64,000 bases of DNA from an uncultured Clostridia bacterium (GTDB lineage Bacteria > Bacillota > Clostridia > Christensenellales > UBA1242): NCBI GenBank assembly GCA_944384465.1, contig CALWTK010000003.1, forward strand, positions 34,383 through 98,382. Reading direction: 5' to 3'. This document shows, one piece after another, positions 23,650 to 26,235 of this stretch. The notes under the pieces are model-generated. The model was not told where the DNA came from. It made no database searches and saw nothing but the letters and a program-made list of their open reading frames with translations. The number at the start of each line of letters is the position of its first letter. Position 1 is the stretch's first letter. The position numbers were made by a program, and so were the translations under genes.

Positions 23650-24345
23650 CTACACAATTTTTACCAATTTGTTGTTCACCGCATCACAACTGGTCAAAAA
23701 ATATTTCACACCATTGATTTCATTATACAGCATATTAGGATTGACATATCCATGCAGATGCCCAAAGACAACATACGACACACCATAATCTTCAATCATT
23801 TTTGTATATTCGCTTGGTTCACGCTTGTTATTAAAAGGCGGATAGTGAGTGATATAAATTATTTTTTCGTCATTTTTTTGCAATTTTTTCGCATTTTTTA
23901 GCGAAAGTTCTAATCTTATTAGCTCTCTTGAATAAATTTTTTTATTTTCTTCAGTATCGAACTTTCCTTCAGGAATCAGCCATCCCCTGTTCCCACAAAA
24001 AATAAAATCGCCAATCTTAATCGCATCATTTTGTAGGGCGTAAGTGTTTTTTGGTAGTTTTTCTCTCACTTTACTAACGCTGCTCCACCAGTAATCATGA
24101 TTACCACGGATGATAATCTTCTTTCCTTTCAATTGATTTAAAAACTCAAAATCAGGCACCACTTCTTCCAATTTCATCGCCCAAGAATAATCTCCAGCTA
24201 AGATCACGACATCATCATCACTTACAAGTTCATTCCAACTAGCGACAATCTTATCCAAATAGTTGTGCCAAACAGGGCCAAATATATCCATTGGCTTCGT
24301 GTTGTTAATATCAAGATGTAAGTCACTAATTGAAAATATATTCAC
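23650..24345 (-). CDS. calcineurin-like metallophosphoesterase
   Basis: Motifs DLHLD, GDYSW, GNHDYWW, HYPP and GHLHG. GTG start (24345..24343) behind AAAGGAGAAA. It occupies the slot where mraZ normally sits. Confidence 0.85.
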   Translation of the reverse strand: MNIFSISDLHLDINNTKPMDIFGPVWHNYLDKIVASWNELVSDDDVVILAGDYSWAMKLEEVVPDFEFLNQLKGKKIIIRGNHDYWWSSVSKVREKLPKNTYALQNDAIKIGDFIFCGNRGWLIPEGKFDTEENKKIYSRELIRLELSLKNAKKLQKNDEKIIYITHYPPFNNKREPSEYTKMIEDYGVSYVVFGHLHGYVNPNMLYNEINGVKYFLTSCDAVNNKLVKIV

Positions 24346-24716
24346 TTCTCTTTCTCCTTTTTATTTTCAATATTAGGGACGCCACATCGCAGATTCCTGT
24401 CGCTAGACAGCTATCAAGATGTAAGTCACTAATTGAAAATACTTTCACATTTTCTCCTTTTAATTTTCAATATTAGGGACGCCACATCGCTCCCCGGGGT
24501 CCCCGCAAGAATTCATTCGCAGTGGGGCTAACTTGGGGTCCCCGCAAGAATTCATTCGCAGTGGGGCTAACTTGGGGCCCCATAAGCACTCGTGCGTAAT
24601 GGGGCTAGCAGAACAAACAAGCAACAAGCTTATGATTGCAAGCACGCGAAGCAATCTAGCATAGGCGCAGTTTGTGATGCAGTCACTAATTGAAAATATA
24701 TTCACCATTTTCCCTT
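24310..24716 (-). repeat. three direct copies of the phosphoesterase RBS/start module
   Basis: Copy 1 is 24390->24310 (genuine). Copy 2 is 24490->24413 (about 80 bp, near-identical, offset 103 bp). Copy 3 is 24716->24681 (GGTGAATATATTTTCAATTAGTGACT). Confidence 0.9.
24496..24610. repeat. tandem 39/39/37-bp GC-rich hairpin repeat
   Basis: GGGGTCCCCGCAAGAATTCATTCGCAGTGGGGCTAACTT occurs twice, identically (24496-24534 and 24535-24573). A diverged third unit, GGGGCCCCATAAGCACTCGTGCGTAATGGGGCTAGCA, is at 24574-24610. 22 of the 39 unit positions are G/C. Confidence 0.9.
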
Positions 24717-24846
24717 TTGATAAAGTTAATAGTAAACATTGGAGCACTTAATTTATCAAATTTAATTAAAATTCCAGCCATTTACTAATCATAATAAGCA
24801 ACAAATTTTTTTAAATTATGAAAATATTATATCATTTTTTAGATAT

Positions 24847-25437
24847 TTAATCAATTTTTTTGTCCTGCTGAGATTTTTTTTCATTTCTCTCGTACAATAA
24901 TGCTAATTTGGGACGGTTGTAGCGCTGAACGATTACTGGCAATATTTGAATTACAAAATTGACTATAGCCATTGGCAAGCCTACGATATACCACAACTTT
25001 AGATTTATAAATATCACAAATATACTTAACACCGCACTTATCACATGCATGACTTCAGCATAGACTGTCTCTTCCATAAATTTATAAATATACCGATTGT
25101 CGTTCATATCAAGCACTTTATCCTTACCAAATCCTGCAAGTGCCTTACCCGTCTCTGGTATTTTATCTTTCCAATTGCGGACTTTTAATTTTAAATACAG
25201 TTTCGTCTCCCATGGCCTGACCTTGTATATCTTATTAAATGGATTCACCCATTTTTTTGGAAGAATGCGCACCAATATGGCGACAAGCGCGTCTATCACA
25301 AATAACGCGAAAAATGTATATATAATAGTAATCAATATTTCTCCATCCGTTACAGATAAGAAATTAAGTCCCACAGACAGACTTAAAATTGTGGTAAAAA
25401 TCACACCTATTACAATAATACATACATATAATATCAT
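24847..25437 (-). CDS. membrane protein, possibly of the CrtO-like acyltransferase family
   Basis: 196 aa with 4 TM segments. The C-terminal QRYNRPKL and the central W..K.P...GK...F.K pattern recall, from memory, the glycosyl-4,4'-diaponeurosporenoate acyltransferase family. Confidence 0.45.
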   Translation of the reverse strand: MILYVCIIVIGVIFTTILSLSVGLNFLSVTDGEILITIIYTFFALFVIDALVAILVRILPKKWVNPFNKIYKVRPWETKLYLKLKVRNWKDKIPETGKALAGFGKDKVLDMNDNRYIYKFMEETVYAEVMHVISAVLSIFVIFINLKLWYIVGLPMAIVNFVIQILPVIVQRYNRPKLALLYERNEKKSQQDKKID

Positions 25438-25569: not shown

Positions 25570-26235
25570 ATGTCTTTTTATACAGATGCAAGACCAGGCA
25601 TTTTCCCAGGTCAAACAAACAATGTTATGAATGGACTTTGTGAACGTATTTGCATCCAAACAACAAAAGTGTTTGATGCTTGTATGAACCAATCACAAAT
25701 TGAAGATTATTCGTTAACATTGACTAATTTCAATCCAGCAGCTCCCACAACCCCACTCACATTTGTCAGCGGAAGTTCTGTAGGAAGCAATGCAACAGTA
25801 ACTGATTTGATAATAACCAGATTTGATGATAGACCAAACTTTGCTCGTGTGCAAGCTAATATAAATATCCCTGTTACAGTTACATATACAGATGCAAACA
25901 ATGTACCAGGCACAGCTGAAGGTACTATCACTCTCGCTCAAGATGTCGTATTGTATGTTCCTCAACCATCACTTACTCCAATTGATGTAGTCGCATTTGG
26001 AAGCGCAGTGATCGCTAGCGGTGTATACAATACAACTACAGGCGGATTCACAATTTCCGCATGCGTTACAACAATATTAAAAGTTGTAGCAACCGTGGAT
26101 GTATTAGTACCAAGTTATGGATATTGTCCTATCCCGCCTTGCACTCCATTCGCAGGTTCGACTGTGTGCCCTGGAGTGTTTGACCTACCACTATATCCAA
26201 CCGCCGTGTCTCCACAATCAACAAATTCTAGATAA
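25570..26235 (+). CDS. Thr/Val/Pro-rich, cysteine-bracketed protein of unknown function
   Basis: 221-aa ORF behind a strong RBS (TAGGAGGTTAAAAA) and followed by a terminator. Cys at positions 24/28/38 and 165/186/191/200. No signal peptide. Confidence 0.7.
   Translation: MSFYTDARPGIFPGQTNNVMNGLCERICIQTTKVFDACMNQSQIEDYSLTLTNFNPAAPTTPLTFVSGSSVGSNATVTDLIITRFDDRPNFARVQANINIPVTVTYTDANNVPGTAEGTITLAQDVVLYVPQPSLTPIDVVAFGSAVIASGVYNTTTGGFTISACVTTILKVVATVDVLVPSYGYCPIPPCTPFAGSTVCPGVFDLPLYPTAVSPQSTNSR

Follow-up and report, generated by a model that had tools for sequence, protein, structure and literature searches.

The window, i.e. the whole 64,000-nt stretch of contig CALWTK010000003.1 analysed here, comes from a Candidatus Onthoplasma-like member of the Christensenellales from the chicken gut. 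It carries a metallophosphoesterase (MPE) gene, which is the first of an MPE-rsmH-ftsL-like-PBP cluster. The present work deals with the leader of this gene. Genomes of the lineage measure about 0.8-0.9 Mb, with a coding density of about 91-93% (PMC12306168). At such a coding density, the leader of about 470 nt that appears to precede the MPE gene stands out.

The leader contains repeated copies of the start of the gene. The Shine-Dalgarno (SD) sequence, the start codon and the first codons of MPE are present three times on the minus strand, with starts at 24345, 24448 and 24705. The sequence copied in the leader corresponds to MPE codons 1-12 (24345->24310, minus strand). In the following, an upstream copy of the SD sequence, start codon and first codons of MPE is called a ghost start. 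An imperfect inverted copy of MPE codons 3-12, located in the leader before each next start, is called an anti-start. These parts are arranged in modules, always in the order ghost start (forward), core or tip, anti-start (reverse), SD sequence and next start (forward). Thus, the leader of the window reads promoter, ghost start 1, A core, anti-start, SD, ghost start 2, B tip, anti-start, SD and true start. Positions are given in Table 1; coordinates of leader parts refer to the minus strand.

Table 1. Features of the MPE gene and its leader, listed from the gene towards the candidate promoter, with the upstream open reading frames (uORFs) at the end.
Feature	Position	Strand	Basis
MPE gene, 231 aa, GTG start	23650..24345	-	Pfam PF00149; same start codon in orthologues
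True start (copy 1)	leader 24390->24346, GTG at 24345, codons to 24310	-	MPE 5' end
SD of true start (AAAAAGGAGAAAGAGAA)	24346..24362	-	sequence
Anti-start 2 (ATCTGCGATGTGGCGTCCCTAATATTGAAAAT), imperfect reverse complement of codons 3-12	24363..24394	-	alignment, fold, column pairing
Type B tip (AGCTGTCTAGCGACAGGA); hairpin CTGTC-TAGC-GACAG at the centre of the ghost/anti-start palindrome	24395..24412	-	fold, alignment
Ghost start 2 (copy 2 of the earlier note): GTG and codons 2-12, ends after CTTGAT	24413..24448	-	copy score 64
SD of ghost start 2 (TAAAAGGAGAAAAT); its TAA ends uORF A	24449..24462	-	sequence
Anti-start 1 (GCGATGTGGCGTCCCTAATATTGAAAAT), imperfect reverse complement of codons 3-11	24463..24490	-	alignment, fold
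Three 39-nt GC-rich hairpin units: CCCCA, 17-19 variable nt, GGGG-A/C-CCCC	24495..24611	-	units 2 and 3 identical
Type A core; predicted stems GTGA/TCAC (junction), ACAAAC/GTTTGT, GATTGC/GCAATC	24612..24681	-	alignment with L016, folds
Ghost start 1 (copy 3 of the earlier note): GTG and codons 2-8, 24/24 nt as in the true start, ends after AGTGAC	24682..24705	-	copy score 50
Leader, SD and ATG of the first ghost start (TCAAAAGGGAAAATG)	24706..24720	-	sequence
Candidate operon promoter: TTGATT, 17-nt spacer, TGATATAAT (extended -10)	24826..24854	-	best match in region, 10/12 with TG
uORF A, 82 aa; from ghost start 1 through the entire A module, stop 14 nt before ghost start 2	24460..24708	-	ORF translation
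uORF B, 40 aa; opened by ghost start 2, crosses the B module and ends at a TAG 17 nt into the MPE ORF, other frame	24326..24448	-	ORF translation

Re-reading of the sequence placed the three copies where an earlier note, made from the sequence alone, had located them, with the same breakpoints AGTGAC|TGCATC and CTTGAT|AGCTGT. The true start is preceded by the leader GCGATGTGGCGTCCCTAATATTGAAAATAAAAAGGAGAAAGAGAA. Copy 2, taken from its leader to the end of its 12 codons (24490->24413), matches copy 1 at about 91% of positions over some 80 nt, with one 3-nt indel. Copy 3 has in common with the true start only GTGAATATATTTTCAATTAGTGAC (24705->24682), and its own SD sequence differs (AAAAGGGAAAATG). 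Because the leader of this first ghost start resembles the sole leader of L028 (GATAAAAGGGAAAGAATG), a relative without modules, it may be the original MPE leader. The leader of one co-occurring strain also resembles it. The repeats are not due to chance. Indeed, a 23-mer from the MPE leader occurs twice in the window, with zero occurrences expected, and MPE is alone among 54 genes in having an upstream copy of its own start: its best upstream direct-copy score is 64, whereas the remaining 53 genes of the window reach at most 32, with a median of 18.

The structure was also found outside the contig under study. L001, an independent metagenome contig from another sample, is 99.92% identical to the window and aligns without gaps over 6.4 kb that include the whole region. 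Two more contigs (L002 and L003) agree with the window as far into the repeats as they extend. An assembly artefact, an issue raised in the earlier note, has a negligible probability. It is true that contigs of several assemblies end within the repeats. However, the gapless structure of L001 and the partial contigs of two further samples match the window, the units specific to the variants have different sequences, and two modules are spanned by a contig derived from RNA, described below. The repeats can be assembled because the copies differ from one another.

Two types of module are observed. In type A, the copy of the gene start is cut after codon 8 (AGTGAY|) and followed by a 70-nt core with two stems, then by one to four GC-rich hairpins of 39 nt. 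The corresponding island of the window (24681->24495) is homologous to 161-nt units, of which three stand in tandem ahead of MPE in L016; the MPE gene of L016 is only 74% identical to that of the window. Between the two, an 8-nt indel is located in the hairpin loop of the GATTGC/GCAATC stem and the closing pair changes from G-C in the window to A-T in L016. In type B, the cut is after codon 12 (CTTGAT|) and an 18-nt tip with a small hairpin follows. The stem of the tip is CTTGTT/AACAAG in L020 and L024, a compensatory change. Type B was found in the window, L004-6, L015, L020 and L024. The comparison of orthologous junctions proposed in the earlier note thus revealed the same module types at the same two breakpoints in other species (L016, L020, L024, L015, L004-6 and L033), and a compact junction in the relatives that have no module at all. 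The latter comprise the L007 type (14 contigs, consistent), L008-13, L014 and L028.

Some of the module-free relatives start their MPE gene in a distinct manner. In L007 (1960-2003), L008 (1950-2003), L011 (1965-2003) and L036-L049, the MPE ATG is located 6 nt after a good -10 box and is not preceded by an SD sequence (for example TTGACT, 17 nt, TATTAT, TAAAGC, ATG). The first gene of the division cluster looks leaderless in these relatives, judging from its promoter motif. Modules were seen only in species with SD-led MPE starts.

The anti-starts were identified by comparing the start region ATTTTCAATTAGTGACTTACATCTTGAT, whose reverse complement is ATCAAGATGTAAGTCACTAATTGAAAAT, with the leader, where anti-start 2 runs from 24394->24363. 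The same sequence recurs, from GCGATG on, at 24490->24463. Comparative data make this inverted similarity convincing. In L016, GTAAATCACTAATTGAAA is a perfect 18-nt complement of that contig's own true start. Minimum free energy folds pair the ghost start with the following anti-start in the window, L004, L006, L015 and L020. In an alignment of six type B sequences, 85.5% of the cells are paired, versus 33-49% when the partner columns are slid, and three pairs are altered on both sides. Moreover, the anti-start pairs best with the start region of its own lineage in four lineages out of five. The predicted unpaired probability of codons 2-12 is 0.2-0.45 with modules and 0.53-0.63 in module-free relatives; the SD sequence and the start codon are mostly exposed in the predicted folds. 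A simple model in which only the last start would be open was dropped, accessibility predictions being inconsistent between architectures. Anti-start bases that are not complementary to the start (ATC-TGCG-ATG-GTGCG-TC versus ATC-AAG-ATG-TAAG-TC) are kept across species whose MPE genes are only about 75% identical, as seen at 24363-24394 of the window and in the homologues of L006, L015, L020 and L024. These bases could form a binding site or a required bulge.

As the earlier note had stated, the two upstream copies open reading frames of 40 and 82 codons. An ORF begins at every ghost start. The frame set by the ghost start is free of stop codons in seven of the eight modules tested; in the A module of the window, the only stop is the final TAA, at which uORF A terminates. 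The two remaining frames of these modules contain 0-6 stops. After dinucleotide shuffling, the probability of an open ghost frame is 0.005-0.09 for seven of the eight modules and 0.22 for that of L024. Across 11 loci, 15 of 16 ghost ORFs end at -14, +1 (xTGA overlap) or +17 relative to the next start. Stop-start overlaps of the xTGA kind are found in L016, L024, L032 and L034, and the window has the -14 and +17 positions. None of the eight distinct start-to-start spacings is divisible by three; therefore, no ghost start is fused in frame to MPE.

We also considered that the uORFs might be open because they encode functional small proteins, for instance Cys-rich peptides. Besides the open frames themselves, a pattern common to the peptides of the window and L016 (SISD-x-V/I-TNC ... 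VC-x-x-SP ... CL-x-G) points in this direction. The common residues follow, however, from the conserved CCCC/GGGG stems. Furthermore, the reading frames are not conserved, which makes a functional small protein very improbable. The indels that separate the type A modules of the window and L016 total multiples of three, but homologous nucleotides between them are read in shifted frames. The reading frame over the conserved GGAATCTGCGATGG of type B is not the same in the window as in L024; openness is kept, not the peptide. Two identical hairpin units of L033 are also read in two frames. A protein search with the 40-aa uORF B matched only itself.

Module number and order vary among strains with MPE genes at least 99.2% identical. 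We note architectures with a digit that gives the number of 39-nt hairpin units after each A (1-4 among strains). The window and L001 (100% MPE nucleotide identity) have the architecture A3-B-gene. L034 and L035 have A4-A1-gene (99.2% for L034; L035 stops short of the gene), and L032, also at 99.2%, has (...)A1-B-A1-gene. Sister species with 85% identity show A2-gene (L033), B-B-gene (L006) and B-gene (L004); the series A1x3 also occurs among related species. In X12, the island is joined straight to the copy-1 leader (joint 24390|24535), so that the B module is missing and the leader is A-only. The same junction is found in X25 as a loose contig end. The change of leader architecture that the earlier note expected the direct repeats to permit through recombination is borne out by contigs of the same species that lack the copy-2 module (X12 and X25) or have the A4-A1 or A1-B-A1 order. 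The modules show a mosaic of leader and start alleles, a pattern expected from recombination or gene conversion. Even near-identical strains (L002, L032 and L034) have different numbers of hairpin units and different loop sequences. For example, the first hairpin loop of L002 (11-41, compared with 24611-24573 of the window) is wholly different (CCCCAATAAGCACGAGAAAAAAGGGG) in contigs 99.4% identical overall. The hairpin loops are hypervariable.

The candidate promoter overlaps the 3' end of the upstream crtO-like gene. It has the same sequence at the same place in L034 and L035 and is near-identical in L015. Its position implies the leader length of about 470 nt given above, assuming that this predicted promoter is the one used. 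A scan for intrinsic terminators detected none. Modules are present in RNA-derived sequence. In the X26 metatranscriptome, a 329-nt contig comprises one type A module followed by the anti-start, SD and start, and continues into another module of type A. This contig has a depth of 12, versus 6 for the MPE gene.

We favour the view that the leader arose by direct and inverted duplication of the translation-initiation region, was reshuffled by homologous recombination and is tolerated because its modules are translationally transparent. On balance this is the probable explanation, if only by a little. As to origin, the initiation region would have been copied directly and in inverted form when replication switched template at small quasi-palindromes, with unequal crossing-over thereafter. 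Template switching is able to make and homogenise the arms of inverted repeats and RNA hairpins (PMC8794818, PMC8604942). Homologous recombination between the repeats of about 80 nt would then gain, lose and reorder modules. As to translation, ribosomes would load at the first ghost start and read the ORF, kept without stops, through the module, melting the hairpin between anti-start and start that otherwise covers codons 3-12 of the next start. They would terminate at or close to that start, at -14, +17 or +1 (xTGA overlap), and translation would restart there, the last start yielding the normal MPE. Modules would persist since the expression of an important operon remains undisturbed. Module number may additionally tune the expression of the division operon. 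The suggestion of the earlier note that the leader results from duplication-driven remodelling holds.

Several observations weigh against this view. In the window alone, the inverted similarity is only marginally above chance (score 22 versus a null of 17.3 +/- 2.3, maximum 24). The modules behind the statistics of open frames are related and not independent, and hairpins rich in GC are prone to lack stops in any case; the two frames used by the hairpin units of L033 also count here. The ghost ORF of L020 ends at -53, ahead of the true start, so that the proposed coupling is not universal. Predicted accessibility does not single out the true start consistently across architectures. That ghost starts are translated and that MPE depends on them is what we infer from the arrangement of the sequence. 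The X26 RNA run may contain DNA, and the strand of its contig is ambiguous. Short-read assemblies could place modules that have repeats of about 80 nt in common in a wrong order, and individual orders are provisional. A simple tandem inversion duplication accounts neither for the SD sequence and start that separate the inverted copy from the last direct one nor for the origin of the type A core. Finally, the ghost start of L024 (4908-5044), ATGAAAATTTTTTTAATTTCAGATTTGCATTTGGAC, which encodes MKIFLISDLHLD and lies 9 nt after the stop codon of the crtO-like gene, departs from the true start at 11 bases out of 36. Nine of the differences are synonymous, including TCA versus AGT for Ser. No transfer signal was found for the L024 gene, whose identity to the nearest relative is uniform (83-85%) over gene and flanks. 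The divergence of this ghost start fits neither recent local duplication nor detectable transfer.

Other explanations share part of this evidence. The modules might be a contingency-type array, module gain and loss altering the translation or the stability of the division-operon mRNA under selection for variation of expression between cells or strains. Several architectures within one species, variable copy number in sister species, conservation of the anti-start motif with its non-complementary bases at about 75% gene identity, and a predicted pairing of early codons unlike that of module-free relatives would agree with such an adaptive role. We nevertheless regard it as possible but rather unlikely, as close relatives consistently manage without modules in 14 contigs and predicted accessibility is not monotonic with module number. 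A bolder proposal combines this role with ribosome passage: the modules would be self-propagating, start-restoring palindromic units of a kind not described before, which copy the translation-initiation region of a gene directly and inverted, remain open to ribosomes and act both as a ribosome relay and as a copy-number rheostat or phase-variation device for the cell-division operon of reduced-genome gut Clostridia. We consider it unlikely.

Insertion events were weighed on the same grounds. Integration scars, or a small non-autonomous mobile element that restores the MPE 5' end and leaves displaced starts upstream (attL/attR accretion), would account for sharp breakpoints at the same two codons in several species and for the replacement 5' end that closes each inserted unit. 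The ghost start of L024 resembles another allele of the N-terminus, and one GC hairpin unit is also present at another locus in four metagenomes. Yet only 100-300 nt, with no recombinase gene, separate the repeats; circles of 100-161 bp are implausible recombinase substrates, and the flanks of L024 give no transfer signal. None of the about 45 loci fetched has a full-length element at the site, only modules or the compact junction. Searches for a mobile source were empty: phage and plasmid records contained no BLAST match to the island, the leader and hairpin patterns were absent from viral contigs in two scans, and the type B leader motif gave two matches in JGI metagenomes, both of them fortuitous and within a coding gene of an unrelated organism. 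A search of all libraries with uORF A retrieved three true relatives only, all starting with the MPE N-terminus. Site-specific integration therefore seems quite improbable. Nested insertion of a transposon or of a miniature inverted-repeat transposable element (MITE) with target-site duplication, which the earlier note had proposed, is hardly credible. The inverted repeats at module ends and the GC-rich palindromic cores do recall many MITEs. But the "terminal repeats" are copies of the codons of the MPE catalytic motif (FSISDLHLD), and the duplicated segment (24-80 nt, including SD and start) is far above the fixed 2-14 bp duplications made by transposases. No other copies exist in the 64-kb window or the fetched loci, only one of the 54 window genes is affected, and the collections searched hold no similar sequence apart from relatives that themselves carry the MPE N-terminus.

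A few more specific identities were set aside. No Rfam family matched the window at the gathering threshold, nor did any match 24200-24900 with a cut-off as loose as E=10; a known cis-regulatory RNA, ribozyme or riboswitch was discarded for either module type on this basis. The 39-nt units are not a CRISPR array: their variable parts are only 17-19 nt, where spacers of at least about 26 nt are expected, these parts are diverged versions of each other, and the units abut. A diversity-generating retroelement, for which adenine-specific changes and a neighbouring reverse transcriptase are expected, does not fit copies that differ by a 3-nt indel and mixed substitutions next to genes for MPE, RsmH, a CrtO-like protein and a GTPase. 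Ribosome bypassing of the T4 gene 60 kind was also put aside; it would yield the same protein as direct initiation, and the sequence is neutral in this respect.

A near-copy of one GC hairpin unit (24574-24607) is located at another AT-rich locus in metagenome runs X1, X2, X3 and X5. Its flanks there are ATTATAAATTCACTTTACAGAATTAATTTG and ATGTGGGCAGTCGCCCATAAATAAAGTTTT, the second of which holds another GC hairpin. From these occurrences, the GC-rich hairpins may be a dispersed repeat in this genome or in a co-resident one.

Upstream of MPE are found genes for a CrtO-family protein, a protein without Pfam match and an EngB-type GTPase, and the gene order around MPE and rsmH is the same in all relatives fetched. 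The second of these proteins (221 aa; 25570-26235, plus strand) is encoded divergently upstream of the crtO-like gene, and its ORF is kept at that position in all relatives that have the crtO-like gene. The earlier note had drawn attention to the absence of mraZ. This gene is indeed missing at its usual site upstream of rsmH, where MPE is found instead in the window and in every relative fetched, which says nothing specific about the repeats. By eye, nucleotide conservation of the first 100 or so bases of MPE (24250-24345; orthologues L014, L020, L024 and L028) appears well above that of the whole gene (about 75%), third codon positions included. In L002 (973-1902), rsmH was called as two ORFs of 130 and 98 aa. 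The coverage of this contig is about 3, and a sequencing or assembly error is probable, not a pseudogene.

Several known systems resemble the leader in part. The trp and erm leaders are classical examples of coupled or translation-opened leaders. Coupled uORFs, or structured ribosome-binding sites opened by upstream translation, are also known from the MS2 coat and replicase genes and from standby models (PMC5934652), as well as from orf121-tnpA of IS91 (PMC13181058). As in these cases, an SD-led upstream ORF ends at or beside the next start and a hairpin covers the early downstream codons. Here, however, what opens the uORF is the start of the downstream gene itself, copied together with its first 8-12 codons, and these codons recur in inverted form as the inhibitory arm. 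The units are chained in strain-variable number and order, and coupling is proposed.

With template-switch repeats and tandem inversion duplications, for which Roth's group reportedly developed a model in Salmonella, the leader has in common the direct-inverted-direct order, a small perfect hairpin at the centre of the palindrome and arms that co-vary between lineages. It differs in that the inverted copy is limited to codons 3-12, that an SD sequence and start precede the last direct copy, that tens of bases instead of kilobases are involved, and that the A core has no source in such a model. Contingency loci are known for variation of tandem-repeat copy number in the 5' regions of bacterial genes. 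Here too, 5' repeat units vary in number between strains, plausibly through recombination or slippage, but they measure 100-300 nt, each has a full translation-initiation region, and on/off frameshift logic is absent. Integration that restores a gene end is exemplified by phage 21 and e14 in icd, by islands in tRNA 3' ends and by the accretion of ICE and CIME elements. Direct repeats of a gene end, an intact gene and displaced partial copies alongside are features of those sites as well. In the present case, the end is a 5' end with SD and start, integrase and element body are lacking, the size of the units is much too low, and nothing was found in phage, plasmid or viral collections. Lastly, Rickettsia palindromic elements and the GC-rich byp elements of mitochondria are palindromes tolerated in coding sequence. 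They too are GC-rich hairpin inserts in AT-rich genomes, open to ribosomes. Unlike them, the modules are neither dispersed as such nor part of a protein; in the proposed mechanism, translation would restart at the duplicated start.

No description of chained ghost-start modules was found in the literature searched. uORFs, stop-start overlaps, hairpin-masked starts, repeat polymorphism and template-switch palindromes are each known singly. As far as we can tell, their combination into a modular, strain-variable leader made from a gene's own start is new.

The locus has practical consequences. Gene callers annotate false small genes at this site and may give MPE a wrong start, short-read assemblies break at the repeats, and annotation pipelines mis-handle the locus. 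In L034 (2078-2719), for instance, the gene caller began MPE 18 codons late (213 aa), apparently since the overlapping ghost ORF had been called.

If ribosomes are indeed passed from start to start as proposed, long structured insertions between a promoter and an important gene can be harmless, provided that the insertion re-creates a ribosome-binding site and start, stays free of stops and hands ribosomes to the next start. This would give a simple, testable rule for the tolerance of rearrangements at the 5' ends of genes. The related strains and species would then also offer a natural series of leaders, with 0-3 or more modules, in which to study translational coupling and hairpin-masked starts.

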